This document shows positions 3,371-48,489 of a stretch of 64,000 nt of DNA, one piece after another. The translations under genes were made by a program, and so were the position numbers. Positions within the stretch are counted from its first letter, which is position 1, and each line of letters starts with the position of its first letter. Source of the stretch: Candidatus Marinacidobacterales bacterium (GTDB lineage Bacteria; Acidobacteriota; Vicinamibacteria; Marinacidobacterales; DATDRI01); the NCBI GenBank assembly GCA_965197825.1, contig CBDANW010000003.1:2121566-2185565 (forward strand), in the 5' to 3' direction. The notes under the pieces are model-generated. The model was not told the origin of the DNA and did not search any database. It saw nothing but the letters and a program-made list of their open reading frames with translations.

Positions 3371-3374
3371 GGCG

Positions 3375-3523
3375 GATGTGTCCCGAGGTCCGTGGAAAAA
3401 GAACGGCACCCTCCACTCCGTCATCAGAGTATCATATCAGGCGGCAACCTCCGCGTGTTCGAGAACCTCGCTCAGACGTTGGTAGCCGTCGATGCGTCGT
3501 TGTGCCTTCTATTTATTCATCCG
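3375..3523 (-). pseudogene. 3' fragment of an IS256-family transposase gene (duplicate of 24975-25100), followed by the IS-Y terminal 23-mer
   Basis: 3378-3500 is near-identical to 24972-25100. Minus-strand translation gives ...LRRIDGYQRLSEVLEHAEVAA. 3501-3523 is tgtgccttctatttattcatccg. Confidence 0.45.
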
Positions 3524-3951: not shown

Positions 3952-4117
3952 GGTGCTTCCGCCATCAAGTGTTGGTGAAATGACGCTAAAACACTACAGT
4001 GCATTAAGGTACAACCAAAATAGAGCTCGTGGCCTTTGCTGCGCGCTAAATGGAGCGTAAGCGCCTCTTTTGCAAAGGGATGCGTACACATCACCAACAG
4101 TGAACAGTGCAAGCACC
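3952..4117. repeat. MITE-B (166 bp) with imperfect TIRs ggtgcttccgccatcaagtgttggtga / tcaccaacagtgaacagtgcaagcacc
   Basis: Near-identical copies at 23759-23924 and 36756-36921. The ends are inverted-repeat related. Confidence 0.6.
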
Positions 4118-5769: not shown

Positions 5770-7988
5770 GCCGACGAGACTCCACCTTCACCGAATTCCC
5801 GCGCCAACGCCGCAATCAGTTGCTCGGCGTCGTCAACCTTCTCCGCGTCCAGCGCGCCAGCGTTGGCATCGACCAGCTCACTGCCGATGAACTTCGCCAG
5901 CGTCGCGTACTCGTCGTAGCAGTACTCCTGGAGCAGCGGCAGAATTTCCTCTCGGAACCGGGCCGCGAACTCCTCGACCTCGTCCACCGGCTGACCGTCG
6001 ACCAGCAGATACGAATGACCGACTTGTTTTTCGCGTCCCTCGAATCTGGCGATCCGCTGATTCAGCCCATCGAGGAAGTCATCGAGCGCGAGGTCACCGA
6101 CTACGGCGCCGTGCAGCAGCTCGCTGTCGGGCATGCACTCGAGAAACGCGAAGCGCCGTCGCAGGGCAGCATCAAGTAACTTGATGCTGCGATCAGCGGT
6201 ATTCATCGTACCCAGCAAAAACACGTTGAGCGGCACGCTGAAGGTCTCCTTGCTCTGCGGCAGGGTCACGGTGAGGCCACGCTTGTCTCGCTCGAGCAGC
6301 GTCAGCAGCTCACCCATGATCTTGGCGACATTGCCACGGTTGATCTCGTCTATAAGCAGGAGATACGGACGACCGGGATTCACCTGGGCGGCGCGGCAGA
6401 CCCTTTTGAAGACGCCGTCTTCGAGCGCCAGCGACAACCCGCCAGCTCCGCTAGAGTCAGGACGAAACCCTTCGATGAAATCCTCGTATGTGTAGGACGG
6501 ATGAAACGTCATGCGGGTCAGCTGGCCCACGCTGGCCGTCGTGCCCGAATCACAGGCCTGCTCCAGGATGGCACGCTGTGGATGACGTTCCGCCAGCTGC
6601 ATGAAGAGGTGCTCAGCTTCGGTCTCCGTCAGCGCGAAGAGCGTGCCCTGGTTGTTGAACCGTATCGGCTCACTCTGCGCCATTACCGCGTCTTGCGTCA
6701 GCTCGGCATGGCTCAGTCCTCGGTCGAGTTGCTCAACAGGCTCTAGCCCAATAGTTGGTGAGTTGTCGCCGACGCTCTGGAACTCCCGACTCACCCGTGC
6801 AAGGGCTACGACGCGCTTGTCGGGCGTACTCTGGTACCCGATTACTAGATCACCCCGTTGTACCAGCGGATAGTTTCGTTTGAGGCGACCGTATCTATAG
6901 TCGGCTTTGCCGTCCCGAAAGAGCTGGTCCCAGCTCCACTCCTTCCGGTTGGCCACCGCCCACCAGACCCGCGACGACAGGTGGGAGGTCGAGAGCTCAC
7001 GCTCCGCCTCGCGCAGACGATCAGAATCGCCAAGCACCGCGTCGGCCTTCTCGTGGCCGATCTGTCTCAACAACCACCAGACCGCGAATCGCCTGGCCTT
7101 GTAGGTCTTTCCTGTTCCCGGTGGCCCATACAAAATGAGCTGACCTTTGCGCTCGAGCGCCGTGGCGAGGCGCCCGTACAAAGGATCGACCACCATCGGT
7201 TCGCGCTCCTTGCCGCCCACGATGGTCCTCAGCAGCGTGTCAGGCACTTTGGCGATCGTTGCGGTTGCCCAGCGCTTCTGTGGCACCACACTTTGCTCGT
7301 AGGTCGTATCCCATTTAACCGCCACCGTGTGCCGGTATTCGGAACGCTCATCGGCCCATCGATATCCCGGTTCGACGACCGCTCCCAGGGCAAGCACTCG
7401 GCTGATACCTCGATTGGCTACGACGAGGTCGCCGGGCTCCAGCTCGTTAAGCGTCCACAGCTGGTTGCCCTTCCGTTTCGCCTGGACGGGCCCCTTGTAG
7501 GGGTAAGCCTCCTCGAACCGAATATGGAATAACTCCTTTGATTCAAACTGCGAGAGATCGCCCACTTCATCCCAGCCGACGCAGATGTAGCCCTCCCGCA
7601 AGCAATCCTCCCAGAACCGCGCATCCTTTCCTGGTTCAATCTTCAACACCCGCCTCGTCTCACGAGGATCGCGCCACTTGTATAGCAGTCGCTGCAGCTC
7701 CTCAGTGTTCCAGCCCTCCACCGCACGTTCGCGCCGCAAGGCTGCAAGCACGAACCGATTCAGCGTCACTACCGACGACGCGTTGACCTCCTCCAAGGGG
7801 CGATCCAACGAACGCAGGTAATGTCGCAGGTGGGTGGTCGAGTAGACGGGCAGCACCTCCTTGGGGAAATACACGTGGAGCGACTTCAGTTTCAACGCCG
7901 GTCCGAGTCCTAGCGTCTCGAGCGCGTCGATGCGTTCCCACTCGCCACGCTCTGCTAGCTCGAATGCCTGCAAGAACTCGTTTCGCAA
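5766..7988 (-). CDS. mcrB: McrB-family GTPase (AAA+) with an unusual domain order: an about 105-aa N-terminal region, EVE-like domain 1, Walker A, inserted EVE-like domain 2, then the AAA+ remainder
   Basis: Walker A LILYGPPGTGKTYKARRFA. TFHPSYTYEDFIEGFRP, LLLIDEINRGNVAKIMGELLTLLE and LLGTMNTADRSIKLLDAALRRRFAF match the E. coli McrB motifs. EVE-like 1: FWEDCLREGYICVGW...EPGDLVVANRGISRVLALGAVVEPGY...HTVAVKWD. EVE-like 2, about 210 aa inserted between Walker A and the FHPSYTYEDF block: WWAVANRKEWSWDQL...LVQRGDLVIGYQSTPDKRVVALARVSRE...IGLEPVEQLDRGLSHAELTQD. TTG start at 7986-7988 preceded by gagggagg. Confidence 0.8.
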   Translation of the reverse strand: MRNEFLQAFELAERGEWERIDALETLGLGPALKLKSLHVYFPKEVLPVYSTTHLRHYLRSLDRPLEEVNASSVVTLNRFVLAALRRERAVEGWNTEELQRLLYKWRDPRETRRVLKIEPGKDARFWEDCLREGYICVGWDEVGDLSQFESKELFHIRFEEAYPYKGPVQAKRKGNQLWTLNELEPGDLVVANRGISRVLALGAVVEPGYRWADERSEYRHTVAVKWDTTYEQSVVPQKRWATATIAKVPDTLLRTIVGGKEREPMVVDPLYGRLATALERKGQLILYGPPGTGKTYKARRFAVWWLLRQIGHEKADAVLGDSDRLREAERELSTSHLSSRVWWAVANRKEWSWDQLFRDGKADYRYGRLKRNYPLVQRGDLVIGYQSTPDKRVVALARVSREFQSVGDNSPTIGLEPVEQLDRGLSHAELTQDAVMAQSEPIRFNNQGTLFALTETEAEHLFMQLAERHPQRAILEQACDSGTTASVGQLTRMTFHPSYTYEDFIEGFRPDSSGAGGLSLALEDGVFKRVCRAAQVNPGRPYLLLIDEINRGNVAKIMGELLTLLERDKRGLTVTLPQSKETFSVPLNVFLLGTMNTADRSIKLLDAALRRRFAFLECMPDSELLHGAVVGDLALDDFLDGLNQRIARFEGREKQVGHSYLLVDGQPVDEVEEFAARFREEILPLLQEYCYDEYATLAKFIGSELVDANAGALDAEKVDDAEQLIAALAREFGEGGVSSA

Positions 7989-18262: not shown

Positions 18263-19645
18263 TTACAGTTTGATAAACCTCTCTGCCATTCTCTCCACGA
18301 ATGCAGCATTGCATCCATCAAAGCCGAAGAGCCGCAGTATCGGGCAGCTCAATTCCGCGACGATAGTTGAACGAGCGGCTCGTAGTTGCACCACGCTCCA
18401 CTCTCCTTCGGTCGTACGTTTGTCCGCGCTCGCAGCGTGGCCCGGCCGCCAATAGTCTTCAGAGTTAAAATCATTGATCTCCCTGTCCTTGAGACCCATC
18501 CATGTACAACGAAAGCCGACCCGTGTTGCCTTTTCTATTCGTCTTACCAGCGACTTCGCATGGGCAACGAGTTCGGTCGTTTCCCGAACGACTGTTTCAG
18601 GAGACAGCCAAGTGCCGGCCTGCCGACCCAAACGGTCAACGCTACGCTTACGGTCCTCTCTGTAAGCTCGAACCAGCGTCGCACGTCCATCGGGCGCCAC
18701 GCGCCAATAATCTGGCAGGTACTGGTCGAAATCTCCTTCGCCCATAAGGTTGGTCTCAAGGATGTCCGCGCCGGTTCCATCGGGTTGTTCAGGATAGGTT
18801 GCCGGCGCGATGCTTGGCTTACTGAACGGGTAGAACATGCTCCAACCGGTCCACACCGTATCACGGACCTCGTTGTTCACCTCGACTAGGACTCTGATTA
18901 GTGAATCCGTGGGAAGAGGATCATTTCCGTCGGAAGAGATCAGGTAGCTCAATTGATAACGGTCCTCTTCGATCGGCACCGGCCAGTGAAATCCTTTGGC
19001 CTGAGACAACAAATGGAGGAAACGTCTTTCGCCATCGTTGTGCCACTGCTCCAATCGTTTCCACCCAGTCGGTCCTCGTGTTCCTCGTGTCTGCAGAAGG
19101 CTGGTAATATCGCTTAGCAACTGGTCTCCATCGTTGAGCACGCATCGCCTGATCAATAGCCGCCATTCTTCGGCACCGCTGATCGGTGCGCTTTCCGGTC
19201 CTGGCTTGCGAATATAGTATGTTCCACTAACGATACCCTGTGGCTTTCCTCTATCGTCCTGAGGTCCGTCAGCCTTCGCGGCAATTGGCACACCCTTGTG
19301 GCCAGGCACTCTAATAACAGGAAAGTCTTTTCCGTTACTGTGTGTAATAAAAAAAACGTCGCACTGAAAAATCGGTGTCAAGTAACGCTTTATAATTGCC
19401 GCGAATGTATCTCGATTGTATTCCTTGAGTGACGAGGGACGATTCTCCGCGTGCTTTAGATTATCCTGGAATCCAAAAATCAGATAGCCGCCGCCGTGAT
19501 TGGCCAACGCTCCCAAGTGACGTGCAAGCTTGGCTTTCTGAATTTGGTTATCAAGGTCGACCCATGCCTTGAATTCGATTCCCTCATTCTCTCTGGGATT
19601 TTCAATGAGGTCATTGAGGTCGTCGTTCGTTTTTTTGAGTTTCAT
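18263..19645 (-). CDS. AlbA_2 (Schlafen-like, divergent-AAA, PF04326) domain protein with an about 280-aa uncharacterised C-terminal region
   Basis: N-terminal ENEGIEFKAWVDLDNQIQKAKLARHLGALANHGGGYLIFGFQDN matches the AlbA_2 consensus (E.lEfK...la..i.AfaNt.GG.l.iGv.D). ATG at 19643-19645. Local GC is about 52%, below the flanks. MITE-A copies lie on both sides. Confidence 0.6.
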   Translation of the reverse strand: MKLKKTNDDLNDLIENPRENEGIEFKAWVDLDNQIQKAKLARHLGALANHGGGYLIFGFQDNLKHAENRPSSLKEYNRDTFAAIIKRYLTPIFQCDVFFITHSNGKDFPVIRVPGHKGVPIAAKADGPQDDRGKPQGIVSGTYYIRKPGPESAPISGAEEWRLLIRRCVLNDGDQLLSDITSLLQTRGTRGPTGWKRLEQWHNDGERRFLHLLSQAKGFHWPVPIEEDRYQLSYLISSDGNDPLPTDSLIRVLVEVNNEVRDTVWTGWSMFYPFSKPSIAPATYPEQPDGTGADILETNLMGEGDFDQYLPDYWRVAPDGRATLVRAYREDRKRSVDRLGRQAGTWLSPETVVRETTELVAHAKSLVRRIEKATRVGFRCTWMGLKDREINDFNSEDYWRPGHAASADKRTTEGEWSVVQLRAARSTIVAELSCPILRLFGFDGCNAAFVERMAERFIKL

Positions 19646-22563: not shown

Positions 22564-22643
22564 TGAGGAGCTACCCTCAGAAGGTGTGGAAATAAAGTAA
22601 AGGCGGAGTAACCTTCCGCGTCACGAAACACGGCGTGAAGGTG

Positions 22644-23530
22644 CCTTGGTGCACAACTCCGATAGAGGCCGAGAGCTCGCTTGGCCCCGACTCCCATCAT
22701 CCGATCATCTCGCTATCAGGCATCCCGAGCGCCGTCATGGTGTTGAGAATCTTGCACCCGATCCTTGCCTCAACTCTCTGTGCCGCCAACCCTCTCGCTC
22801 GCATCGCTGAGCCCACGATAGCCTTGTAGCGATGGAACGTTGTCTCGACTTTGCTCCGTTTGCTGTAGCCCGATTCTGTGTGCCACTTTCGTTTGCCGAG
22901 CCGAGCTTGTGCTGCAATGTTGCGATTGCGCTGTCGGCTGCTCGCCGGCCCCGATGTGAGCAGGGCGCCCTTGCGCGGCGGTATCAGCACCCTCGGCGAG
23001 CGATGAGCGCTGTGATTCTCGATTGCCTCATAGACGCCGCCGGCGTCGTATGCGGTGTCAGCTCTGGCCGATGAGATGGGACTGTCGATCTGTCCGACAA
23101 GCGATGCAACCCGCGATGCAACCCGCGATGAATCGCGGGCTCTTTTGCTCGTCAGCTCGCCGGCGACGACTTCGCCACTCTGCTCGTCGACACACAGATG
23201 GAGCTTGCGATAGTCCCTGCTCTTTTGTGCTCTGCGCAGCTGGCCGGCGTGGACAGCGAGACCGCTGCTGTCGATCAAGATGTGCAACGGCGTCTTCTGC
23301 TTGTCTTGGTAGAAGGGGAACCTTACCCAGATTCGGCTTGCGCCTCGAGATCGTGGTGTGATCGGGCACATCATTGTCTAGCTTCATCAGAGCGAACAAC
23401 GACCGCAGCAATCTCTCGCTCTGCCTAGATGACAGATGAAACACCATGCCCAGGGTGACAGCCGTCTCGATGGCGTGGTTCGAGTACTTGCGTTGACGGC
23501 CCGGTTTCCTCCTCCTTGGCCGGGGCGCGT
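22644..23530 (-). pseudogene. IS5-family element copy B: 5'-truncated by a MITE-A insertion and carrying an internal frameshift
   Basis: Two overlapping ORFs (22697..23374 and 23058..23669) together match the transposase at 50835..51800. The right IR ccttggtgcacaactcc is at 22644. The N-terminal part is replaced by MITE-A (23535-23637). Confidence 0.6.
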
Positions 23531-23534
23531 CCCC

Positions 23535-23637
23535 GTCCTGTGCCAAAACTCGGCCCTTTTGAAATAGGCCATAAATCAGCAACTTAGTGTCTGTGTTTGC
23601 GACCGGGCCAAGGGCCGTGGGCTTTACAATCGTCTTG
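23535..23637. repeat. MITE-A segment
   Basis: gtcctgtgccaaaactcggcccttttgaaataggccataaatcagcaacttagtgtctgtgtttgcgaccgggccaagggccgtgggctttacaatcgtct. Confidence 0.6.
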
Positions 23638-23758: not shown

Positions 23759-23924
23759 GGTGCTTCCGCCATTAAGTGTTGGTGAGATGACGCTAAGACC
23801 CTACAGTGCATTAATTTACAGCCAAATTAGCGTTCGTGACCTTCGCTGCGCGCTGAATGGAGCGTAAGCGCCTTTTTTGCAAAGGGATGCGTACACATCA
23901 CCAACAGTAAACGGCGCAAGCACC
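23759..23924. repeat. MITE-B copy
   Basis: ggtgcttccgccattaagtgttggtgagatgacgctaag...tcaccaacagtaaacggcgcaagcacc. Confidence 0.6.
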
Positions 23925-24974: not shown

Positions 24975-25256
24975 TAATTATTGGGATGTGTCCCGAGGTC
25001 CGTGGAAAAAGAACGGCGCCCTCCACTCCGTCATCAGAGTATCATATCAGGCGGCAACCTCTGCGTGTTCGAGAACCTCGCTCAGACGTTGGTAGCCGTC
25101 GATGCGTCGTAGTTGAATCTGGCCAGAGGCGATAAGCCCAAACAGCAAAGCGACCGCAGACTCCTCGCTGGAGAACGACGCTTGGGTTTTCGTCCGGCGT
25201 CGAAACTCGCGGTTGAGATTCTCCAGAGCATTGGTCGTTCGAATCGATTTCCACAT
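24975..25256 (-). pseudogene. 3' fragment of an IS256-family transposase gene
   Basis: MWKSIRTTNALENLNREFRRRTKTQASFSSEESAVALLFGLIASGQIQLRRIDGYQRLSEV. The 3' 125 bp are duplicated at 3378-3500. Confidence 0.5.
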
Positions 25257-25543
25257 GGCACGAGGGAATTCGTAGAAGTCAGCAGCTGATTACCGGCCTC
25301 CTCTAGGCTTCGGACGACGGCCGGCGCGAGAGGCGTCCACTTGGCGACGAGCTCGTCATAGGCTTTGCGAGCATCGATCCCGTCCTGTGCCAAAAACACA
25401 AACGAACTCAAGACCAGCTGTTCCAAAAACTTGTAAGCAGGCTCTTCCGCGCACGGGTGCCGCGACCTCGGTCGGCGCGCCCAGCACGAGATCCGGGTCA
25501 GCGGGTAGCGGTCCCTGTTCACAGAAGACGCCGGACGAGATGA

Positions 25544-26779
25544 TTAGTCCTCGTCGAGCCGATTGAAGGCTTTTACCACCTCGCCTATCGCGGTCAGCCA
25601 TTCATGGGAGTGTTCGAGTAGATCGCCGATCTTCGGCTTGCTCCCGTCGACGACCACACGCCATGTCCAATAGTTGCCGTCCTTCTTCACCGTCGCGCCG
25701 CGAACGAGCCGGGCCACGGCCTCCAGGTAATCCACCCCTACTTGCGGATCGCCGCTTTGCTTCGCGTAATCGACCACGTAGTTCGTGTTGAGATCTCCAT
25801 TCGGAAACAACGTGCCGAAGTTAACTTTGCTTCCATCGCTCCGATGCCAGTTCAGGATGTACGAGGCGCGTGACAAGGTGACTTCGAAATCGTCGCCCTG
25901 GGCCTCGTAGCTCTGGAAGAATGCCCGCACGCGCAACGGTAGTGCCGGATCGACCTGTTCGATCTGTTCGTAGAACTCCTTCTCCGTGATCCGCGTCCTG
26001 ACTCTTACACCACCTGACGCTGGCGGCGGGTCTTCCACCACGACCTCCGCGTCGGCCCGTCGCACGACAGCACGCTCGATTTCGACCGTCTTGGCGAGTA
26101 CCCTCGGCTCTACCATGATTCCGCCCGCCGAGCCCTCCGGCATATCGAAGATGGCCAACTCCACGAGCCCGAACGCGATTCGAATGCCGGCGGACTGGTT
26201 GAGATAACCCGCAATTCGTTCAACCCCTTCGCGTATGCCGTCGCCCACCACGATCAGGAGAAAGCGGCCGCTGGTAAGGCTACGCGCGACGTCGTCCACG
26301 AAGGTCGCCTCGTCAATCGTATCGTGCTGCGCCCGCACGATATCGAACAACGCGTTGGTGTTTCCGGAACGTCTTGCAGCCCGGCAAACGGCATCGTTCA
26401 GCTCATCGTACGACCAGCGACTGATCTCCTTCGCATAGTCGAGGATCTGGGAGACAGCACCGCGCCGCGCCTCCGGGTTACGCCACAGCTTGCACTCAAC
26501 GATGGACAATCGACCCTCCTCGCTCATGTAGGCGAGGTCGATCGGGCCGGCCGCGGTTGGCAACTCGCGACAAAGCGGTGTGGCAGGAGCGAACGAGGGA
26601 TCGATTTCTCCGATGGGAAGGATTTCAGGAGTCTCGAACAGAAGCTGTTGCAGCCAGTCCTCGTCATACCCGTTACCGCCGGACCCGATCTCCAGTCGAC
26701 GCCGGTGCAACGGAACCGCGCGGCTTCCCTTAAGTTTTGGGAGGTAGACTGTCTGACCGTATCTGGAACGGTTGGACAT
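25544..26779 (-). CDS. PD-(D/E)xK nuclease-superfamily protein, paralog A (RecB/YhcG/HsdR-N-like core with D...E.K...Q..Y)
   Basis: EDWLQQLLFETPEILPIGEID...GPIDLAYMSEEGRLSIVECKLWRNPEARRGAVSQILDYAKEI (D, ExK, QxxxY). Homologous along its whole length to the protein at 30340..31194. SD aaaggag lies 8 nt before the ATG at 26777-26779. Confidence 0.5.
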   Translation of the reverse strand: MSNRSRYGQTVYLPKLKGSRAVPLHRRRLEIGSGGNGYDEDWLQQLLFETPEILPIGEIDPSFAPATPLCRELPTAAGPIDLAYMSEEGRLSIVECKLWRNPEARRGAVSQILDYAKEISRWSYDELNDAVCRAARRSGNTNALFDIVRAQHDTIDEATFVDDVARSLTSGRFLLIVVGDGIREGVERIAGYLNQSAGIRIAFGLVELAIFDMPEGSAGGIMVEPRVLAKTVEIERAVVRRADAEVVVEDPPPASGGVRVRTRITEKEFYEQIEQVDPALPLRVRAFFQSYEAQGDDFEVTLSRASYILNWHRSDGSKVNFGTLFPNGDLNTNYVVDYAKQSGDPQVGVDYLEAVARLVRGATVKKDGNYWTWRVVVDGSKPKIGDLLEHSHEWLTAIGEVVKAFNRLDED

Positions 26780-26954
26780 GCTCGATTCTCCTTTCTGTAG
26801 CGGCAGTCCCGGTTAGTCCGGCGCAGTCGAGACATTGTAGCCACACTGCGAGGGAAAGTGTGCCAATCTTAGTTGGGAATTGAAACGGCTCCAAACCCCG
26901 TGGTTTGATGGCGTTTGACAAGACAAAATCAAGCCGCGAAGAAAGGAGCCGAGA

Positions 26955-27142
26955 TGGGAAGTCTGCTACGTTCGGTCAAGAAACGCAAGAAGTCGCGTCG
27001 TTTGGGTGAGGTCGAGATGGTGAGGCACGAGGATTACGGGGAACTCGCGCTGGAAGACGCAAGAGCGAACCATTCCACGTTTACAATGACGCCGGATCAC
27101 CTCATCCGTTCGCCGCGAAACGGCCAATCCTGGCAGGTCTAA
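26955..27142 (+). CDS. Small basic hypothetical protein (62 aa), divergently oriented from nuclease paralog A
   Basis: Strong SD (gaaaggagccgag) before the ATG at 26955: MGSLLRSVKKRKKSRRLGEVEMVRHEDYGELALEDAR... No recognisable domain. Confidence 0.3.
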
Positions 27143-27236
27143 ACCGCGGAATCAACGACGGATCGAGTTTTTGCGGAGCACAACCCTTTTTTCCGAGTTC
27201 ATGCTACTCTATCTCCCAAATTGAGGGGGTTGACCC

Positions 27237-27740
27237 ATGAAAATCAACGACGACCACATGTATCACGGAGCTGCATTGCTGCAGATTGCTGAGGATCCAA
27301 GATTCACGGCCATAAACTCAATTGAGGTCTCAGGCCAGAAATCTCGCAGTGCCTACCGAATCAATGACAGCATCGGAATCTTTCTGAAGTACGCATCCAA
27401 GCCTTCAAGAACTTTCAGAGAATACACCTTTACATTTACTGCCGACCACCTGCGAGAACTAGCTGAAGTCGACAACAGTCAGGTGTCGAACACGTTTATC
27501 GCCCTCGTGTGCGTCAAAGACCGCGAAATTGCGTGCCTCACGCTTCCACAGCTCCAAGAGCTGGTCAAGCGCCGCCGAGAGGCCAAAGGCACACATGAAG
27601 ATCAATACCTTGTGTTGGTGACAGCACCGCAAGGGAAGAGCTTGCGGGCCTACGTCAACGCGCCCGGCCGCCGGAAGCACATCCTGGAGAAAGAACTGCT
27701 CATCAAGCGTCGGTCGTTTCCTGATGCGCTCTTCGTTTAG
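27237..27740 (+). CDS. Hypothetical protein (167 aa), lower GC
   Basis: SD gaggggg lies 7 nt before the ATG. MKINDDHMYHGAALLQIAEDPRFTAINSIEV...FIALVCVKDREIACLTLPQLQELVKRRRE. No confident domain assignment. Confidence 0.35.
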   Translation: MKINDDHMYHGAALLQIAEDPRFTAINSIEVSGQKSRSAYRINDSIGIFLKYASKPSRTFREYTFTFTADHLRELAEVDNSQVSNTFIALVCVKDREIACLTLPQLQELVKRRREAKGTHEDQYLVLVTAPQGKSLRAYVNAPGRRKHILEKELLIKRRSFPDALFV

Positions 27741-27800
27741 AATCGCGAAGAGACTGACCTGACCCCACGGTTAGTACCACACGGACTGGTGCCGGTGGTC

Positions 27801-27838
27801 GTCCTGTGCCAAAACTCAGCCCTTTTGAAATGGGACTT
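27801..27838. repeat. MITE-A TIR fragment
   Basis: gtcctgtgccaaaactcagcccttttgaaat. Confidence 0.5.
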
Positions 27839-28076: not shown

Positions 28077-28601
28077 ACCGGCGGTGCCGCATGTACAAGA
28101 ACAGCGCCGCCATAGAGGTTTCTAATGTTAGATCATATCATAGAAGTCTTTGGGAATGAGCTCATTATAAACCTTGAGCCTACTATAAAGTCTATTTGCA
28201 AACCGTATGAGACGATTCTTGATCGTCTGCTGGCTGAGGGTCGGATTTCTGAATCTGAGCGCGAGGAGTTTCGTCAACAATCTCGACCCCCTCAGAAACA
28301 TCCCGCACTACCAACCTGGACAACTCAAAATCGCCGACGGTGATTACAATTGCTAGTTCTTTCATAGCTTTCCATTCCTCTATAGGGGGTAGAATAGCAC
28401 GATGAGCAAGCGACCAGATTACGGAGACGCTACGCCCGAAGACCTAGCCCTGGCGCTGATTCGGCCTAAGAACGCTAGCTGGTACGCGCGCCGGAAGGCA
28501 AGCCGTTGTCCGCAACCAGCTCTCGATACATCAGACGCTTCCCAATCAGACCAGGGCCACGATGACCAGCGGATCAAGTCTAGGTAGCGCAAGCGCTCAT
28601 A

Positions 28602-30000
28602 GGTCAAGTCTTAATTTTCCTGTCAAATCTCCGTACGGTTCCCCGCGCTCGGTTAAGCTGCTGATTCCTCCGACGTGCCTTGCGGGAGAAGCTCGTTGCG
28701 AAGCTCCTCGACTTTCCTAGCGGCGAAGACATCCATCCTCACGCCGCGCCATTTGTTTGCGACGGCCAAGAGCACAGCGAACGAGAGTTTCATCGCGGCC
28801 TCCTCGGTGAAGAAGTGAGGAATGACCTTTGTGCGACGTTTGTGCTCTCCGAACGTGCGCTCAAGTAGATTCGACGTGCGAAGCCTTTTGTGATGCGCCG
28901 CAGGAAGGCGTAGCGCCTGAAGACACGCTTCGAGGGTCTCTTCCATGCACTTCATCGCGCTCGGGAATCGTTGACGGTACCGAGCGATCACCTCCCGACC
29001 CTTCTTCAGCCCTTGCTCGTAGCTGTTCGCATGGAACGACTCAAGGATGGCCGCCTTGAGTTCGTCGCGCACTTCCTTCGGAGCCTTGCCCAGGATGTTC
29101 TCGAGGCGGTGCTTCTGGCAACGTTGCTTGAGGCTTCGAGGGAAGACCTCTGCGATCGCTTTGAGCACTCCAGGATTCCCGTCCGTCACGATGAGCAACG
29201 GCTCCCTCATTCCTCGGGCCACCATCTCCTGCAAAAACCCCTTCCAGTTCTCGTAGGATTCTCGGTTGCCGACACCGATATGAAGAAGAACTCGCGTCCC
29301 ATCAGCGCGATAGCCGGTCGCAACGAGGATGGGCTCTTTCCTCTCCGCTCCTTGGTGGTAGCGCAGGTACGTGCCGTCGAGCTCGAGATACAACAGCTTC
29401 TCGTTCGAGAGATCCCGTTTTCGAAACGCCTCGAAATCCTCCGACAGACACCGTGTGACCCGGCTCACCACCGACTTCGAGACACCCGTGCCGCTCAGCA
29501 CGTCCGCGAACGTCGCCTCAATGTCACGCGTCGACATCCCGTGGACGTACATCCGCGCGATCAGTTCATCGAGTTTCTCGGTCCGGCTCACGTAGGCGTC
29601 GAGAATCTTTGACTGAAACACCTTCTCTGTTTCTCGTACCCGCGGCACTTGCACCGTTACCGCTCCCTCGCCCGTGAGGACCCGATGCGACTCATACCCG
29701 TTGCGTCGTCCCTTCTCCTTCGTCGTTGCCGGAGCGTTCTCATAGTAGTTTCGACCCAACGCCTCCGTCACCTCGCGCTCCAACGCATATTGAAGCATCA
29801 TCTGAGCTCCCGACCGGACGATCTCCGAGAGATTCATCTCCCCAAATACCAGTTGTTCCTCGAACTGCTTGAGTAATCGCTGACTCGGTAGTACCTTTCC
29901 CATGATGTATGGTTCTCCTTTTCTGTCCCCATGACGGGGACGGGTTTGAGCTTGGGAACCATACATCGTTTTTCTTTGACAGGAATCTTAAGACATCACC
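28602..30000 (-). mobile_element. IS256-family element, copy 1 (about 1.4 kb) with IRs ggtcaagtcttaattttcctgtcaaa / tttgacaggaatcttaagacatcacc
   Basis: 99% or more identical to copies 2 and 3. The flanks gctcata / gctgata are not a clean TSD. Confidence 0.85.
28653..29903 (-). CDS. IS256-family (Mutator-type) transposase
   Basis: MGKVLPSQRLLKQFEEQLVFGEMNLSEI...LYLELDGTYLRYHQG...VATGYRADGTRVLLHIGVGNRESYENWKGFLQEMVARG...TSNLLERTFGEHKRRTKVIPHFFTEE. ATG at 29901-29903. Confidence 0.85.
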   Translation of the reverse strand: MGKVLPSQRLLKQFEEQLVFGEMNLSEIVRSGAQMMLQYALEREVTEALGRNYYENAPATTKEKGRRNGYESHRVLTGEGAVTVQVPRVRETEKVFQSKILDAYVSRTEKLDELIARMYVHGMSTRDIEATFADVLSGTGVSKSVVSRVTRCLSEDFEAFRKRDLSNEKLLYLELDGTYLRYHQGAERKEPILVATGYRADGTRVLLHIGVGNRESYENWKGFLQEMVARGMREPLLIVTDGNPGVLKAIAEVFPRSLKQRCQKHRLENILGKAPKEVRDELKAAILESFHANSYEQGLKKGREVIARYRQRFPSAMKCMEETLEACLQALRLPAAHHKRLRTSNLLERTFGEHKRRTKVIPHFFTEEAAMKLSFAVLLAVANKWRGVRMDVFAARKVEELRNELLPQGTSEESAA

Positions 30001-30339: not shown

Positions 30340-31194
30340 CTATTGCATCCACCAGTCTTTGTTCAGCTCCGCGATTTGCACGAACATCTCCGCTTTGTCC
30401 TCAAGCATATCGGATGCTATTTGGAAGTGAACGCGTTGCCTTCTCTCGGTGTATTGAAAGCCTTTGTCGCTGAGTAATTCTAGAATCTCCTCGCGCTTGC
30501 CCCCGTAATGAAAATGGACGAGCACATTGTTTCCGCTTCGGTTCTCGAGCAGCAACTGGTTGTAGCCGCTTGAAGTGATCACAACAGAGAACTTGTTGAA
30601 TCCTAGCTTTGGATTTGAATAAACCGTCTGCGTAAGGCTCAATAGATACCTTGCACTGGCCAATGTTTTTTGAGATTTCTTTACCCAATAAGCCTCATCG
30701 TAGATCTCACCATCTCCTGACGAGGCGTTGTCGTCTGGCTCCTCGTACACATCTATGATTTTGGTGAAATGAAGGCTTTTGCCGTGCGGGCTTTCCACGA
30801 CGTTGACCTGAATGGCGATCAACGGCACCGCACCGCTGAGAATTTGAATGACGTTGAAGAATCGCTTTGTAATACGCTCTGCAACCAAGACTGCATAGTG
30901 TTGTCGTTGCGGCCATTTTCGCTTCATGAGGTCCCAATACTCGATGGTTCTCACGATGTGGTCTGGATCAGTTTCTCCGAGCATCGTTTCGACTTCGTAC
31001 ATCGAATCATCGACGGGGTTCTTGAGCAGAATATCGAGTCGCCCACCAGAGCTTACGGCGCGCTCCTTCGTCACGCCTTCAAGTTCGCCGAGCCCAAGAC
31101 AAGAAGGGCTCTCCCATATTTGGGCTTGCAGCCAAGCCTCATCGAGCCCAACGGAATGAAGCGTCACGGTTTTCGAAAAGGGTATCGCGTCCAT
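30340..31194 (-). CDS. PD-(D/E)xK nuclease-superfamily protein, paralog B, in a low-GC (about 48%) gene immediately downstream of the ParB::MTase gene
   Basis: MDAIPFSKTVTLHSVGLDEAWLQAQIWESPSCLGLGELEG...GGRLDILLKNPVDDSMYEVETMLGETDPDHIVRTIEYWD aligns with paralog A (EDWLQ...GPIDLAYM...SIVECKLW...QILDYA). ATG at 31192-31194. An upstream in-frame GTG at 31314 would leave only a 15-bp gap to the MTase stop. Confidence 0.5.
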   Translation of the reverse strand: MDAIPFSKTVTLHSVGLDEAWLQAQIWESPSCLGLGELEGVTKERAVSSGGRLDILLKNPVDDSMYEVETMLGETDPDHIVRTIEYWDLMKRKWPQRQHYAVLVAERITKRFFNVIQILSGAVPLIAIQVNVVESPHGKSLHFTKIIDVYEEPDDNASSGDGEIYDEAYWVKKSQKTLASARYLLSLTQTVYSNPKLGFNKFSVVITSSGYNQLLLENRSGNNVLVHFHYGGKREEILELLSDKGFQYTERRQRVHFQIASDMLEDKAEMFVQIAELNKDWWMQ

Positions 31195-31329
31195 GTTTTT
31201 TCCTAGTGCTTGCACGGGAGTTTTTCTAGTTTCGCAAGGCTGTTTATACGCGCTCTCGGGTTTCAACTGTTCATTCCCACTTCCAGGCATTACGCGGCCA
31301 TCCGTCTGGTCCACAGATGGCTGGTCGCG

Positions 31330-32727
31330 CTAGGCCTTGTTGGGCTTCGCGTCATAGATCGGCGCGAGCTTCGCTTTCCCGACTTGCTGGCGATACTCAC
31401 TTCGGAGAGCACCGATCCTCTGCCACTCGCCGCTTGCGTCGCGGCAGTACCAGTAGTCCCACCCGTTCCCCGATTTGCTGGTCACGGCAGAGAAGGCCTT
31501 GCTCGGGCTGTCGTGGCACTCGTTGTTTACCTCCAGTGCCTCGCCGGGCTCGGTGTGATTTAGAAGCGGCGCTTCGAAAAGAGCTACTGGCTTTTGCGTC
31601 GAATGCCCCGTGGGCGCGTTCGCCGAAGTCGCGTCCCCACCGAACGGGTTATTGTTCGGAACCGACCACACTGTGGTCTGTGTGCGGTCACCCTTCCATC
31701 GGGACGTACGACCTGTGCGCACGGCATACCAACAGACCTCATGCCGCCAATGGTAATCCGCACGGCTGAAAACAAAGTGCTGCTTGCACCAAATAATTTG
31801 GGACCGGATTTCAAGCCCGGCCGTGCGCAACGCGGTAGCGACCACCCCACCGTGAAGGCTCGCGTGCCAGCAATAAGCAACATCACCGGGGAACAGCTGG
31901 AACGCCGCCGTCCAGTCGACCCGGTCATCATTGGCCACGGGACCCACTGCATGCTTCTTGCCGCCATCGACCCCGGCGCGCCATTTCGGATCGTATTGAA
32001 CTCCGTACGGGGGATCCGTGGCCATGAGGCAGGGCTTCCGGTCGCCGAGAAGGGCCTGGACGTCAGCGGAGTCGGTGCTGTCGCCGCAGCGTAGGTGATG
32101 CGCGCCGAGTTGGAACTGGTCGCCGCGCACGATGGAGGTCGGCCGGGACTCGACAGTGGCATCGGGATCGGTGCGGCCTTCGGTGATCGGCCCGGGTCCC
32201 ACGGCGGCGCGCCATTCCGGCGCCGTCCACTCCCGCTTTATGCTCGGGTCTTGTTCGGCATAATCGAGCAACCTCGCATTCCAGCCGCTCAGCTCGCTTG
32301 CGCGATTGTCGTCGATGATGACCCGCGTCTTTTGCGGCGGGCTAAGATTTGCCCGCTGCACGAACACCGGCCGTGTGCCGTCGACACTCACCACGATGGC
32401 GTCTCGATAGCCGGCCTGTACCGCAGCCTCCCGCATTCCGTTGCCCGCCAGGATCACGCGCTCTTCGTCAATGACGCCCGAGCGCGCAGCCCCCACGCGA
32501 TCGAGGGACGCCGCAATGAAATCAATCCCGCGGGTCATATGCGTTCTCGGGTTGTCCTCTAGCGGCGTCAGCTTCGTGAGCGGGACGACCGACACCTCGA
32601 CCAGCGAGGGCGTCTCCGCATTTTTCGGATCGCGTCTGGAAGCAGCGTTGTCGGCGGGTACGGTTTTCGGCACAGCGGCACGCGGGCGCTTGGCCTTGGT
32701 GCGACGGCGTGAACTGGATTTCGTCAT
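31330..32727 (-). CDS. ParB-like nuclease domain fused to an N6-adenine/N4-cytosine DNA methyltransferase (DPPY type)
   Basis: ParB/Srx motif DRVGAARSGVIDEERVILAGNGMREAA. MTase motif IV CLMATDPPYG. Motif I-like WSVPNNNPFGGDATSANAPTGHSTQKPVALFEAPL. Basic N-terminal tail. Confidence 0.7.
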   Translation of the reverse strand: MTKSSSRRRTKAKRPRAAVPKTVPADNAASRRDPKNAETPSLVEVSVVPLTKLTPLEDNPRTHMTRGIDFIAASLDRVGAARSGVIDEERVILAGNGMREAAVQAGYRDAIVVSVDGTRPVFVQRANLSPPQKTRVIIDDNRASELSGWNARLLDYAEQDPSIKREWTAPEWRAAVGPGPITEGRTDPDATVESRPTSIVRGDQFQLGAHHLRCGDSTDSADVQALLGDRKPCLMATDPPYGVQYDPKWRAGVDGGKKHAVGPVANDDRVDWTAAFQLFPGDVAYCWHASLHGGVVATALRTAGLEIRSQIIWCKQHFVFSRADYHWRHEVCWYAVRTGRTSRWKGDRTQTTVWSVPNNNPFGGDATSANAPTGHSTQKPVALFEAPLLNHTEPGEALEVNNECHDSPSKAFSAVTSKSGNGWDYWYCRDASGEWQRIGALRSEYRQQVGKAKLAPIYDAKPNKA

Positions 32728-33539: not shown

Positions 33540-34500
33540 ATCAATAATGCGGGGATGTCCCGACCGCTGTTGAATTTGGTCGGGTAGCGGCGGCACCTGT
33601 GAATACTCTTAGGCAGCAAACTCATCGCTGTCAAGAGATTTCTGTTTGCTTCTAAGCGCGTGAACGAGAGCGCCCATATGGCGATAGCCTTTGATACGCC
33701 GGAACTTTTTCTGCGCGGTGACGACGCCAAGAGCGGTCCATCGGCGAACCATGGAAGGACTCTACCAACGCTTGACGTTTCTCGATACTCTGCGAATGGT
33801 TCCGTTGAGATTCTCAATGGCGTTCGTCGTGGCAAGAGACTGGCGAAGTAAGGCGGGCAGCGCGAGCTTCACGACCGTGAGTGTCTCTTCCATCCCTTCA
33901 CGAAGGCTTCCGGCAGCTTCGTCGTAGCCGTTTCGCTCGAGCCACGACACCAATGCCTGAAGTCGCTTGCGCGCCTTGTCGGCACTCTTGCACTTGTAGG
34001 TTTCCTTCATCGTCTGGAGCACGTAGGCGTGACGAGACTTGGGAAGGTACGAGCGAAGATTCCGGAGTTTATGGATCTGGCACCTTTGGATGACCGCGAG
34101 GTCCCCCCAAAACGTCGACGAGTGCCTTGCGGATGCCTTTGCCTCCGTCCACTACGCAGAGAATCGACTCATCGACGCGCAAGCCTCGCTCGATAAGGTC
34201 CTGCAACATCGCGGTGCACACCCGAGAGTTCTCCGTCGAGCCCAGCCATATACCCAGGGGCACCTTCGTTCCATCTATTGTGATACCGAGAGTTACGACG
34301 ACGGTCTGTCCGGCCACCTCAAGGCCATCCAGCATCAGTGCCGCAAGCTCGAACTCCTCTAGCCGCCGAGACAGGTTCTGCACCTACTGCTCAGAGAGGA
34401 CGCCGAGGAGATCGCGGGGCTCAAGGGCAAGCACGAGAAGGAGCGAACTCATAACCACTGGGGGAGCACGAACGGAGAGCTGAGCTTCGGTAGCACGCCG
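33540..34500 (-). pseudogene. Degraded IS256-like transposase (a second family), split into several frames
   Basis: ORFs 33762..34022 (...LATTNAIENLNGTIRRVSRNVKRW) and 34069..34383 (...VVVTLGITIDGTKVPLGIWLGSTENS...CVVDGGKGIRKAL) are Mutator-type transposase segments. The 3' 450 bp is repeated at 62020-62447. Confidence 0.5.
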
Positions 34501-34868: not shown

Positions 34869-36268
34869 GGTGATGTCTTAAGATTCCTGTCAAAGAAAAA
34901 CGATGTATGGTTCCCCAAGCTCAAACCCGTCCCCGTCATGGGGACAGAAAAGGAGAACCATACATCATGGGAAAGGTACTACCGAGTCAGCGATTGCTCA
35001 AGCAGTTCGAGGAACAACTGGTATTTGGGGAGATGAATCTCTCGGAGATCGTCCGGTCGGGAGCTCAGATGATGCTTCAATATGCGTTGGAGCGCGAGGT
35101 GACGGAGGCGTTGGGTCGAAACTACTATGAGAACGCTCCGGCAACGACGAAGGAGAAGGGACGACGCAACGGGTATGAGTCGCATCGGGTCCTCACGGGC
35201 GAGGGAGCGGTAACGGTGCAAGTGCCGCGGGTACGAGAAACAGAGAAGGTGTTTCAGTCAAAGATTCTCGACGCCTACGTGAGCCGGACCGAGAAACTCG
35301 ATGAACTGATCGCGCGGATGTACGTCCACGGGATGTCGACGCGTGACATTGAGGCGACGTTCGCGGACGTGCTGAGCGGCACGGGTGTCTCGAAGTCGGT
35401 GGTGAGCCGGGTCACACGGTGTCTGTCGGAGGATTTCGAGGCGTTTCGAAAACGGGATCTCTCGAACGAGAAGCTGTTGTATCTCGAGCTCGACGGCACG
35501 TACCTGCGCTACCACCAAGGAGCGGAGAGGAAAGAGCCCATCCTCGTTGCGACCGGCTATCGCGCTGATGGGACGCGAGTTCTTCTTCATATCGGTGTCG
35601 GCAACCGAGAATCCTACGAGAACTGGAAGGGGTTTTTGCAGGAGATGGTGGCCCGAGGAATGAGGGAGCCGTTGCTCATCGTGACGGACGGGAATCCTGG
35701 AGTGCTCAAAGCGATCGCAGAGGTCTTCCCTCGAAGCCTCAAGCAACGTTGCCAGAAGCACCGCCTCGAGAACATCCTGGGCAAGGCTCCGAAGGAAGTG
35801 CGCGACAAACTCAAGGCGGCCATCCTTGAGTCGTTCCATGCGAACAGCTACGAGCAAGGGCTGAAGAAGGGTCGGGAGGTGATCGCTCGGTACCGTCAAC
35901 GATTCCCGAGCGCGATGAAGTGCATGGAAGAGACCTTCGAAGCGTGTCTTCAGGCGCTACTCCTTCCTGCGGCGCATCACAAAAGGCTTCGCACGTCGAA
36001 TCTACTTGAGCGCACGTTCGGAGAGCACAAACGTCGCACAAAGGTCATTCCTCACTTCTTCACCGAGGAGGCCGCGATGAAACTCTCGTTCGCTGTGCTC
36101 TTGGCCGTCGCAAACAAATGGCGCGGCGTGAGGATGGATGTCTTCGCCGCTAGGAAAGTCGAGGAGCTTCGCAACGAGCTTCTCCCGCAAGGCACGTCGG
36201 AGGAATCAGCAGCTTAACCGAGCGCGGGGAACCGTACGGAGATTTGACAGGAAAATTAAGACTTGACC
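34869..36268 (+). mobile_element. IS256-family element, copy 2, flanked by an 8-bp TSD ttgagata
   Basis: The TSD is at 34861-34868 and 36269-36276. It is inserted inside the ccctgtt repeat array. Confidence 0.85.
34967..36217 (+). CDS. IS256-family transposase
   Basis: SD aaaaggagaacc before the ATG at 34967. The protein is identical to copy 1 except for a few residues. Confidence 0.85.
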   Translation: MGKVLPSQRLLKQFEEQLVFGEMNLSEIVRSGAQMMLQYALEREVTEALGRNYYENAPATTKEKGRRNGYESHRVLTGEGAVTVQVPRVRETEKVFQSKILDAYVSRTEKLDELIARMYVHGMSTRDIEATFADVLSGTGVSKSVVSRVTRCLSEDFEAFRKRDLSNEKLLYLELDGTYLRYHQGAERKEPILVATGYRADGTRVLLHIGVGNRESYENWKGFLQEMVARGMREPLLIVTDGNPGVLKAIAEVFPRSLKQRCQKHRLENILGKAPKEVRDKLKAAILESFHANSYEQGLKKGREVIARYRQRFPSAMKCMEETFEACLQALLLPAAHHKRLRTSNLLERTFGEHKRRTKVIPHFFTEEAAMKLSFAVLLAVANKWRGVRMDVFAARKVEELRNELLPQGTSEESAA

Positions 36269-36397
36269 TTGAGATACAGATGGTTACCACGTCAAAAACG
36301 CTCCGATCAGCCTCAATAATGGCCCAAATTCCCTGTTTTTCCCTGTTCTTGATGGTTTCCAGCCGAGACCGGATAGCTCCAACCTGCACCATCCGCC

Positions 36398-36755: not shown

Positions 36756-36921
36756 GGTGCTTCCGCCATCAAGTGTTGGTGAGATGACGCTAAGGCTATA
36801 TGGTGCATTAAATTACAGCCCAAATAGCGCTCGTGACCTTCGCTGCACGCTAAATGGAGCGTAAGCGCCTCTTTTGCAAAGGGATGCGCACACATCACCA
36901 ACAGTAAATGGCGCAAGCACC
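36756..36921. repeat. MITE-B copy
   Basis: ggtgcttccgccatcaagtgttggtgagatgacgctaagg...tcaccaacagtaaatggcgcaagcacc. Confidence 0.6.
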
Positions 36922-47088: not shown

Positions 47089-48489
47089 GGTCAAGTCTTA
47101 ATTTTCCTGTCAAATCTCCGTACGGTTCCCCGCGCTCGGTTAAGCTGCTGATTCCTCCGACGTGCCTTGCGGGAGAAGCTCGTTGCGAAGCTCCTCGACT
47201 TTCCTGGCGGCGAAGACATCCATCCTCACGCCGCGCCATTTGTTTGCGACGGCCAAGAGCACAGCGAACGAGAGTTTCATCGCGGCCTCCTCGGTGAAGA
47301 AGTGAGGAATGACCTTTGTGCGACGTTTGTGCTCTCCGAACGTGCGCTCAAGTAGATTCGACGTGCGAAGCCTTTTGTGATGCGCCGCAGGAAGGCGTAG
47401 CGCCTGAAGACACGCTTCGAGGGTCTCTTCCATGCACTTCATCGCGCTCGGGAATCGTTGACGGTACCGAGCGATCACCTCCCGACCCTTCTTCAGCCCT
47501 TGCTCGTAGCTGTTCGCATGGAACGACTCAAGGATGGCCGCCTTGAGTTCGTCGCGCACTTCCTTCGGAGCCTTGCCCAGGATGTTCTCGAGGCGGTGCT
47601 TCTGGCAACGTTGCTTGAGGCTTCGAGGGAAGACCTCTGCGATCGCTTTGAGCACTCCAGGATTCCCGTCCGTCACGATGAGCAACGGCTCCCTCATTCC
47701 TCGGGCCACTATCTCCTGCAAGAACCCCTTCCAGTTCTCGTAGGATTCTCGGTTGCCGACACCGATATGAAGAAGAACTCGCGTCCCATCAGCGCGATAG
47801 CCGGTCGCAACGAGGATGGGCTCTTTCCTCTCCGCTCCTTGGTGGTAGCGCAGGTACGTGCCGTCGAGCTCGAGATACAACAGCTTCTCGTTCGAGAGAT
47901 CCCGTTTTCGAAACGCCTCGAAATCCTCCGACAGACACCGTGTGACCCGGCTCACCACCGACTTCGAGACACCCGTGCCGCTCAGCACGTCCGCGAACGT
48001 CGCCTCAATGTCACGCGTCGACATCCCGTGGACGTACATCCGCGCGATCAGTTCATCGAGTTTCTCGGTCCGGCTCACGTAGGCGTCGAGAATCTTTGAC
48101 TGAAACACCTTCTCTGTTTCTCGTACCCGCGGCACTTGCACCGTCACCGCTCCCTCGCCCGTGAGGACCCGATGCGACTCATACCCGTTGCGTCGTCCCT
48201 TCTCCTTCGTCGTTGCCGGAGCGTTCTCATAGTAGTTTCGACCCAACGCCTCCGTCACCTCGCGCTCCAACGCATATTGAAGCATCATCTGAGCTCCCGA
48301 CCGGACGATCTCCGAGAGATTCATCTCCCCAAATACCAGTTGTTCCTCGAACTGCTTGAGCAATCGCTGACTCGGTAGTACCTTTCCCATGATGTATGGT
48401 TCTCCTTTTCTGTCCCCATGACGGGGACGGGTTTGAGCTTGGGGAACCATACATCGTTTTTCTTTGACAGGAATCTTAAGACATCACCC
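47089..48489 (-). mobile_element. IS256-family element, copy 3, flanked by a 9-bp TSD cacatcctg
   Basis: The TSD is at 47080-47088 and 48490-48498. It is inserted within the MTase coding sequence. Confidence 0.85.
47140..48390 (-). CDS. IS256-family transposase
   Basis: Identical to the other copies except for a few substitutions (for example EIVARG in place of EMVARG). Confidence 0.85.
   Translation of the reverse strand: MGKVLPSQRLLKQFEEQLVFGEMNLSEIVRSGAQMMLQYALEREVTEALGRNYYENAPATTKEKGRRNGYESHRVLTGEGAVTVQVPRVRETEKVFQSKILDAYVSRTEKLDELIARMYVHGMSTRDIEATFADVLSGTGVSKSVVSRVTRCLSEDFEAFRKRDLSNEKLLYLELDGTYLRYHQGAERKEPILVATGYRADGTRVLLHIGVGNRESYENWKGFLQEIVARGMREPLLIVTDGNPGVLKAIAEVFPRSLKQRCQKHRLENILGKAPKEVRDELKAAILESFHANSYEQGLKKGREVIARYRQRFPSAMKCMEETLEACLQALRLPAAHHKRLRTSNLLERTFGEHKRRTKVIPHFFTEEAAMKLSFAVLLAVANKWRGVRMDVFAARKVEELRNELLPQGTSEESAA

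Follow-up and report, generated by a model that had tools for sequence, protein, structure and literature searches.

The closest described relatives of the genes considered here are the repair nuclease NucS/EndoMS (PF01939; structures 2vld and 5gke), which is encoded lineage-wide and carries an N-terminal DNA-binding and dimerisation domain; the PADLOC entry PDC-S11; at the level of the fold, Hjc, the SPARDA nuclease DREN (DUF4365), SSV D212 and RecU; and the transposases of the IS256/Mutator type (PF00872) of insertion sequences (ISs). They are compared here with positions 25,544 to 27,740 of a stretch of 64,000 nucleotides (hereafter the window) from a Candidatus (Ca.) Marinacidobacterales bacterium (GenBank assembly GCA_965197825.1, contig CBDANW010000003.1, positions 2,121,566 to 2,185,565 of the forward strand). 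An earlier note, made from the letters alone, had described this region as a mini-island of three genes. Three open reading frames (ORFs) are indeed found where it placed them, of 411 aa (25544–26779, minus strand; p411), 62 aa (26954–27142, plus strand; p62) and 167 aa (27237–27740, plus strand; p167), each preceded by a Shine–Dalgarno (SD)-like sequence (AAGGAG, AAGGAG and GAGGGGG, respectively). The lower GC content ascribed to all three holds for the 167-aa gene (0.524) and the 62-aa ORF (0.561), but not for the 411-aa gene (0.600), the window mean being 0.577. In the reading that we consider probable, the region is a junction of unrelated pieces assembled by IS256-family elements and miniature inverted-repeat transposable elements (MITEs), in which p411 and p167 are solitary accessory genes; for p411, the most plausible role is that of a nuclease acting as a single gene in defence or exclusion.

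p411, p62 and p167 do not constitute a system or an island, because they never co-occur in related loci and because the blocks of DNA homology stop between the genes. Eighty-six loci were compared, L001–L082 being the p411-bearing loci and L083–L086 the first four loci with a p167 homologue. No homologue of p62 or p167 was detected by tblastn in the 82 p411-bearing loci, and no homologue of p411 or p62 was present beside the p167 homologues of L083–L086; the survey of homologue neighbourhoods that the earlier note had proposed thus returned not one co-occurrence of the three genes among the 86 loci. As for the DNA itself, blastn of the window against L001–L012 delimited a block shared with close Ca. 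Marinacidobacterales relatives, whose end points (25515 and 26853) are identical in seven loci. Beyond 26853, i.e. upstream of p411, each relative keeps to a sequence of its own (...AGTTCGTGTG) and the window changes to GAAAGTGTGCC.... A second block, shared with L084, covers p167 alone. The pieces that make up the region are the following:

24984–25256, minus strand: what is left of the 3' end of an IS256-family element, situated downstream of p411 and comprising a C-terminal piece of the transposase and an IS end; its ORF 25047–25256 matches positions 328–371 of PF00872.
25515–26853: block of DNA homology (about 96%) with close Ca. Marinacidobacterales relatives, made up of p411 with 29 bp downstream and 74 bp upstream.
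25544–26779, minus strand: p411, an intact gene for a 411-aa, two-domain, solitary nuclease-like protein (ORF, eight intact close copies, AlphaFold2 model).
26854–27055, plus strand: a second IS256-family element, truncated to its left end and its first 34 codons (98% identity over 202 bp to L104–L107).
26954–27142, plus strand: p62, a chimeric pseudo-ORF made of a transposase N-terminus (codons 1–34) and a repeat-derived tail; its ATG lies inside a 75-aa ORF starting with TTG, and outside its own genome it has partial matches only.
27055–27188: piece of a dispersed repeat, from which the 3' part of p62 derives (scattered matches in L001, L002, L005, L009, L010 and L084).
27171–27754: block of DNA homology (93%, blastn) with L084.
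27237–27740, plus strand: p167, an intact gene belonging to an independent, solitary family of 166-aa proteins whose predicted fold is like that of restriction endonucleases (homologues, PHROG, AlphaFold2, Foldseek).
27800–27834: 35-bp fragment of an abundant MITE of about 105 bp, of which at least 15 copies in the window match it over their first 35 bp or so.

The two flanks are therefore what the earlier note had taken them to be, an IS256-family (Transposase_mut) remnant at 25047–25256 on one side and a MITE fragment at 27800–27834 on the other. Part of the former (24984–25113) recurs at 3374–3503 in the window, and the segment 25399–25515 is common only to the window and L003; on the evidence of the reading frame, the remnant probably extends to about 25514. 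That unrelated accessory genes stand side by side here is explained by the scrambling of the region by ISs and MITEs.

The 62-aa ORF had been taken for a genuine basic protein and for a possible immunity or regulatory partner of the nuclease. Judged by its homologues it is an accidental ORF, the dead 5' end of a transposase gene of the IS256 family, fused to repeat DNA, and its SD sequence, start codon and Lys/Arg-rich N-terminus belong to the transposase. The only full-length match to p62 is the identical ORF of the same genome, on the same 3.15-Mb contig. About 25 other clusters (47–120 aa) share its residues 1–34 (MGSLLRSVKKRKKSRRLGEVEMVRHEDYGELAL-) and then differ from the window, the longer of these proteins running on ...AKVEMIRSLVPLGLMHVHELLDDEVKALAGERYSRK...GRRHGSNPGTVGLGGQRV, and two unrelated ORFs match only its last 22 residues. 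An exhaustive HMMER search with one of the long variants returned 708 relatives, some of them 418–460 aa long; all five long relatives that were scanned are Mutator/IS256 transposases (PF00872, E 1e-17 to 1e-30), and all three that were run by tblastn match the window at 26954–27055 (one of them at 26954–27037). What p62 shares with IS256/Mutator elements is the start of the element, namely the first 34 codons and the 100 bp before them, the full-length relatives being PF00872 proteins of 418–440 aa; the stub in the window differs in being cut after codon 34, by the dispersed repeat at 27055–27188, and in lacking the DDE domain.

In L104–L107, the similarity starts at the base equivalent to 26854, beside unrelated DNA. 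Because this boundary recurs there with different flanks, 26854 is the point at which an IS256-family element, inserted 74 bp upstream of p411, has its outer end. An IS of this type also adjoins the upstream boundary of p411 in L106, in another orientation. The window holds no second copy of the 26854 end sequence, the similarity stopping after codon 34, and the stub belongs to a subgroup other than that of the three intact IS256 copies of the window. A shorter route to the identity of p62 led nowhere: Pfam searches with the short p62-like proteins were empty, BLASTP against the IS256 transposase of the window was not significant, and tblastn against plasmids was empty. It may be added that in L104–L107, which are four metagenome contigs (at about 1–1900), this IS left end is inserted beside a Bub/Bil-type ubiquitin-like operon (Multi_ubiq, ThiF/DUF6791, BubE).

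With regard to p411, its sequence indicates a gene under purifying selection that encodes a complete NucS-type catalytic set. Eight close copies have the same length as the window copy and no frameshift, with ratios of non-synonymous to synonymous substitution rates (dN/dS) of 0.2–0.37 against it. The motifs pointed out previously are all present, i.e. GPIDLAY (D81), VECKLW (E95, K97) and QILDYA (Q111, Y115), and the assignment of a PD-(D/E)xK core of the NucS/YhcG/HsdR-N type stands: the catalytic residues are retained in an alignment of 30 homologues (down to 43% identity), in which D81, E95, K97 and G179-D-G-I182 are invariant and Q111, D114 and Y115 nearly so. The AlphaFold2 model built on the alignment has a mean predicted local distance difference test (pLDDT) score of 81. 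Its residues from about 36 to 232 fold into an alpha-beta-beta-beta-alpha-beta core that is interrupted by a three-helix insertion, and residues 234–261 a low-confidence, disordered linker. The "about 270 aa of unknown function" that were said to follow the nuclease core thus resolve into the remainder of the nuclease domain, as far as residue 232 or so, this linker and a C-terminal alpha/beta domain of about 150 aa. Within p411, the features are located as follows:

26084–26674, minus strand: N-terminal PD-(D/E)xK (NucS-like) nuclease domain, residues about 36–232 (invariant columns, weak hidden Markov model matches, fold matches).
26537–26539, 26495–26497, 26489–26491, 26447–26449 and 26435–26437, minus strand: catalytic codons of D81, E95, K97, Q111 and Y115, respectively.
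25547–25996, minus strand: C-terminal alpha/beta domain of about 150 aa, residues 262–411 (blocks with pLDDT 90–97).

The conserved positions of the C-terminal domain are mostly hydrophobic or Gly, with no conserved polar cluster, and neither searches of Protein Data Bank (PDB) sequences and profiles nor Foldseek returned any sequence or fold match of note for it.

The likeness of the p411 nuclease domain to NucS/EndoMS is that of the same PD-(D/E)xK sub-type, in which the lead-in helix, the R-E strand and the G-x-D, E-x-K and Q-x-x-x-Y motifs align. The best Foldseek matches in the PDB are EndoMS/NucS 5gke_A (probability 1.00) and 2vld_A (0.98), followed by Exo5 and SfsA, all of them PD-(D/E)xK enzymes. 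When a profile of residues 36–125 was used, NucS of P. abyssi (2vld) ranked first in the PDB, with an E value of only 0.26; in this alignment D81, E95-x-K97 and Q111...Y115 fall on the G-x-D, E-x-K and Q...Y residues of NucS, whereas searches of PDB sequences with full-length p411 and its profile gave nothing significant. In contrast to NucS, p411 has its nuclease domain at the N-terminus and with the three-helix insertion, lacks the N-terminal DNA-binding and dimerisation domain, and continues after the nuclease into an unrelated C-terminal domain of about 150 aa. It also scores far below the curated family cut-offs (14.9 bits against a cut-off of 24 for NucS_C, PF01939, and 19.6 bits against a cut-off of 216 for NF003270/PRK04247), and its occurrence is sporadic and mobile. 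Among viral proteins, the best match of the model in BFVD is Gp54 of Bacillus phage G, which is uncharacterised (E 5e-8), ahead of restriction, Mrr, MmcB and Cas4-type proteins; PHROG gave no match for p411.

PADLOC gave a single match for p411, with the PDC-S11 model PDLC04916 (E 2.6e-9, 34.6 bits), in which residues 70–203 of p411 align with positions 47–164 of the 358 of the model; the same model was matched by 29 of 30 members of the p411 family, with a best E value of 2.6e-11. Like p411, PDC-S11 is a single-gene candidate with a homologous N-terminal nuclease domain. The C-terminal halves, however, are unrelated, and p411 matches one of the eight PDC-S11 models, while true PDC-S11 proteins score 1e-40 to 1e-162. 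On these sequence comparisons, p411 is to be regarded as a distant relative of PDC-S11 through its nuclease domain and not as a member. In L031, a true PDC-S11 gene (4783–5928, plus strand; E 6e-162, all eight models) lies directly upstream of a p411 homologue (6001–7131).

The search for relatives found 2,819 p411 clusters at E ≤ 1e-3 among 8,000 candidates examined; precomputed Pfam domains are absent from all of them, and the small number with a name are called "hypothetical protein". A pattern scan, restricted to one genome per species, confirmed at least 522 relatives, across Acidobacteriota, Chloroflexota, Proteobacteria, Bacteroidota, Spirochaetota, Planctomycetota, Verrucomicrobiota, Nitrospirota, Deinococcota and others, the closest among the matches listed being metagenome-assembled genomes (MAGs) of Ca. 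Marinacidobacterales (94–96%). A homologue with 38% identity was also found on a 2.3-kb contig binned as Heimdallarchaeota (L029), which may represent either a cross-domain transfer or a binning artefact. The window has no second copy of p411, in spite of the label "paralog A" in the earlier note: the 324-aa ORF at 30340–31314, which would have been a "paralog B", has no more in common with it than the lead-in helix of 28 residues (hhalign probability 27%), and the p411-like tblastn matches at 33663–33818 and 62136–62291 are weak and lie in IS-related repeats. p411 and p167 also proved unrelated when compared with each other.

Genomic context was examined for 80 p411 loci and about 15 p167 loci. 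The description of p411 as a solitary gene is borne out, in that no cognate or conserved neighbouring methyltransferase and no conserved partner were found in the 80 loci, and clustering of all ORFs of L001–L082 gave no neighbour family shared beyond lineage-restricted sets. Two apparent partners were rejected: Sortilin/BNR proteins in Vicinamibacteria reflect lineage synteny only, and an Exo_endo_phos (EEP) gene is limited to the closest relatives. The latter forms with p411 a 2.5-kb cassette in L001, L002, L004–L006, L009 and L010 (about 5829–8402 in L004), which is present in at least two copies per genome with different flanks (98% over 2,470 bp between L004 and L009; also L001/L002). The EEP gene is missing from the window and from L003, the break being at position 25515 of the window. 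In L001/L002, an intact IS256 element ends 29 bp from the upstream boundary of p411. Seven loci in Alphaproteobacteria and a Planctomycetota MAG (L026, L047, L067, L071, L073, L075 and L081) hold the p411 homologue within a prophage-like element with genes for a ParB-N6/N4 methylase, the large terminase (TerL), DUF5681, DUF3489 and a large serine recombinase; ParB-methyltransferases (ParB-MTases) beside p411 homologues are confined to this prophage-borne subset. Three IMG/VR contigs also carry p411 homologues, one of them near a terminase. Of other homologues, one lies between a sulfatase gene and rlmH/rsfS, and another in an island of integrase, IS256, NERD-helicase and IS21. Carried alone in cassettes, prophage-like elements and single insertions, p411 thus behaves as a mobile accessory gene. 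It is not a classic defence-island gene: the association of its family with defence islands is weak, and that of the p167 family is much clearer.

The p167 family comprises 199 clusters, nearly all of 165–167 aa, from Acidobacteria, Burkholderia, Mitsuaria, Planctomycetes and others; 29 positions are invariant. With a dN/dS of 0.43, p167 is under purifying selection. It matches phrog_28860 (annotated as of unknown function; 6.7e-11) and has no match in Pfam, NCBIfam or PADLOC. Its AlphaFold2 model (pLDDT 89.7; predicted template modelling score, pTM, 0.85) resembles best, though weakly, Hjc, SPARDA DREN, SSV D212 and RecU, to which it is comparable in size and in its alpha-beta-beta-beta-alpha-beta order. 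No sequence similarity to these proteins is detectable, and, unlike SPARDA DREN and the nucleases of recombination modules, p167 is solitary, being neither partnered with an Argonaute nor placed in a recombination module.

The contexts of p167 homologues are strikingly defence-like. In L084, the homologous block lies between a type I restriction-modification (R-M) system and a Dcm/HATPase_c_3/Vsr cluster. Other homologues are beside AbiJ, beside SLFN_AlbA_2 with an AAA_15/21 ATPase, or beside a TIR protein with HicAB, and one is found within an array of AAA_13, DUF4145, BrxR, Metallophos/GAAD and DO-GTPase2 genes; some adjoin IS elements. Four IMG/VR prophage contigs also carry homologues, at the contig end past the tail genes (L087, L088) or near the endolysin gene (L089). 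Across the contexts examined there was no conserved partner gene. Because its homologues occur within defence islands and at the ends of prophages, p167 is a better defence candidate than p411.

The surroundings in the window are an IS/MITE-scrambled variable region of an acidobacterial (Ca. Marinacidobacterales-like) chromosome. Three intact IS256 copies (28596–30000, 34869–36273 and 47089–48488) are 99.6% identical, and a DDE_Tnp_1 IS is duplicated with 97.5% identity (22642–23536 and 50974–51855); these near-identical copies indicate recent bursts of transposition. Two families of MITE-like short repeats, of about 105 bp (23531–23635 and 15 or more further sites) and about 166 bp (23759–23924, 3952–4117 and 36756–36921), pervade both the window and related genomes, and are often translated by gene callers as spurious ORF tails. 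A 460-aa SLFN_AlbA_2 (Schlafen/AlbA_2) protein is encoded at 18263–19645 (minus strand), and in L094 a p167 homologue has a 447-aa member of this family next to it. At 31330–32727 (minus strand) there is a gene for a 465-aa protein with ParB_N, DNA-methyltransferase-like and RAMA domains (phrog_498, 2e-69), which shares 26% identity with the prophage ParB-MTases adjoining alphaproteobacterial p411 homologues. The 324-aa ORF mentioned above (30340–31314, minus strand; GC 0.50) starts 16 bp after this gene; it has no family match and a lead-in helix of the NucS/HsdR-N type. The two genes may form an R-M-like or defence module. The promoter and terminator scan and the Rfam search gave nothing informative.

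How p411 may work can be outlined from its sequence and model. The protein would be a Mg2+-dependent DNA endonuclease. As its C-terminal domain has no conserved polar cluster, this domain is presumed not to be catalytic and may target or gate the nuclease, by target recognition or autoinhibition. p411 would then provide a one-gene accessory function, most plausibly in defence or exclusion, and it appears to travel alone, in multi-copy cassettes among close relatives, in prophage-like elements in Alphaproteobacteria, and as single insertions by housekeeping genes. p167 would be an independent, one-gene component of defence islands with a restriction-like fold, as suggested by its model. A defence role for these two independent, mobile, solitary nuclease-type accessory genes of an IS-scrambled region is plausible. 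In a stronger joint reading, both would be new anti-phage systems of one gene each, p411 a widespread NucS-like nuclease whose C-terminal domain senses infection or foreign DNA and p167 a minimal lone restriction-fold effector of 166 aa in defence islands and prophage ends; that at least one of the two is a genuine defence gene is possible but, in our judgement, doubtful.

Several observations weigh against the main reading. The match of p411 to PDC-S11 spans one third of the model at 35 bits, where a true member reaches 6e-162, and PDC-S11 is itself only a PADLOC candidate. The 123 immediate neighbours of p411 homologues match 84 Pfam families, mostly housekeeping (e.g. Na+/H+ antiporter, AnmK, CcmB, BipA, RF, GMP synthase and pseudouridine synthase), and at most about 9 of the 123 match any PADLOC model (1e-10). 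In L100 (5063–8218), the p411 homologue begins 10 bp past dxs and ends the xseB-ispA-dxs operon; 1.5 kb downstream of it are an IS1595 element and an R-M pair of the SacI type. As for p167, its Foldseek matches to SPARDA DREN, Hjc, D212 and RecU are weak, with E values of 2e-3 to 1e-1 (2e-3 to 1e-2 for SPARDA DREN and Hjc), a probability of 0.97 at most and template modelling scores of 0.3–0.5, and the position of the acid of the (D/E)xK motif is occupied by Phe49. Residues E19, N43-D44, K51 and E62 are conserved, and E19 or E62 could substitute for the missing acid; the catalytic competence of p167 is uncertain.

Some of these observations lead to the first alternative, namely that p411 is a cellular repair or recombination nuclease, which, though equipped with another accessory domain, would act like NucS/EndoMS on mismatched or branched DNA and would have no part in defence. 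NucS/EndoMS is after all its nearest relative in both sequence and fold, purifying selection would be in keeping with such a role, and many homologues are flanked by housekeeping genes, such as dxs, rlmH/rsfS and RmuC. We nevertheless consider this explanation unlikely: p411 homologues are not consistently placed in repair operons, their spread over more than 12 phyla is patchy and without synteny, relatives have two or more copies per genome, and the gene is found on prophage-like elements and viral contigs; moreover, the NucS N-terminal domain is absent and the scores are far under the family cut-offs.

The same mobility could mean that p411 is a selfish gene or a gene of mobile elements, either a nuclease for phage recombination or for degradation of host DNA, or a passenger of IS-mediated spread. 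It occurs as discrete blocks of 1.3–2.5 kb in varied contexts, repeatedly abutting IS256-family elements; the terminase and recombinase genes link it to prophages, and among viral folds it comes closest to Gp54 of Bacillus phage G (E 5e-8). However, no terminal repeats or target duplications bounding the p411 block were found, adjacency to ISs is expected by chance in genomes saturated with ISs and MITEs, most p411 homologues lie outside recognisable mobile elements, and p411 has no PHROG match, so that we attach a rather low probability to this alternative.

That p411, p167 or both are modification-dependent (Type IV) restriction nucleases, as the earlier note had surmised for its nuclease (with an abortive-infection effector as the other possibility), would suit two solitary nuclease folds without a methyltransferase partner, and a p167 homologue does lie among R-M genes in L084; it is made very improbable by the fact that Pfam, NCBIfam and PADLOC revealed no Mrr_cat, SRA, EVE/YTH, McrB or other modified-base reader domain in either protein, and by the lack of a fold match for the C-terminal domain of p411. 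Finally, a single defence or toxin–immunity module of p411, p62 and p167, with p62 as immunity or regulatory partner, might be suggested by three adjacent, divergent ORFs with good SD sequences and by other defence-like genes in the region (SLFN_AlbA_2, 18263–19645; ParB-MTase-RAMA, 31330–32727), but is hardly credible, since none of the 86 loci pairs a p411 homologue with p62 or p167, or the reverse, homology with relatives stops between the genes, and p62 consists of a transposase stub and repeat DNA.

The proposed three-component system of a nuclease, a small basic protein and a protein of unknown fold does not exist, and knowing this averts the propagation of a false family. It is also a caution for genomes saturated with ISs and MITEs, in which short ORFs with an excellent SD sequence and a basic N-terminus can be transposase stubs. 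What stays, as modest leads, are two conserved, unannotated, solitary families with a predicted nuclease fold and without a Pfam model: the p411 family, which is large and spans many phyla, and the p167 family, which has a clear signature of defence islands and prophage ends. They would modestly extend the catalogue of single-gene defence nucleases or, if p411 is cellular, that of NucS-like repair enzymes.

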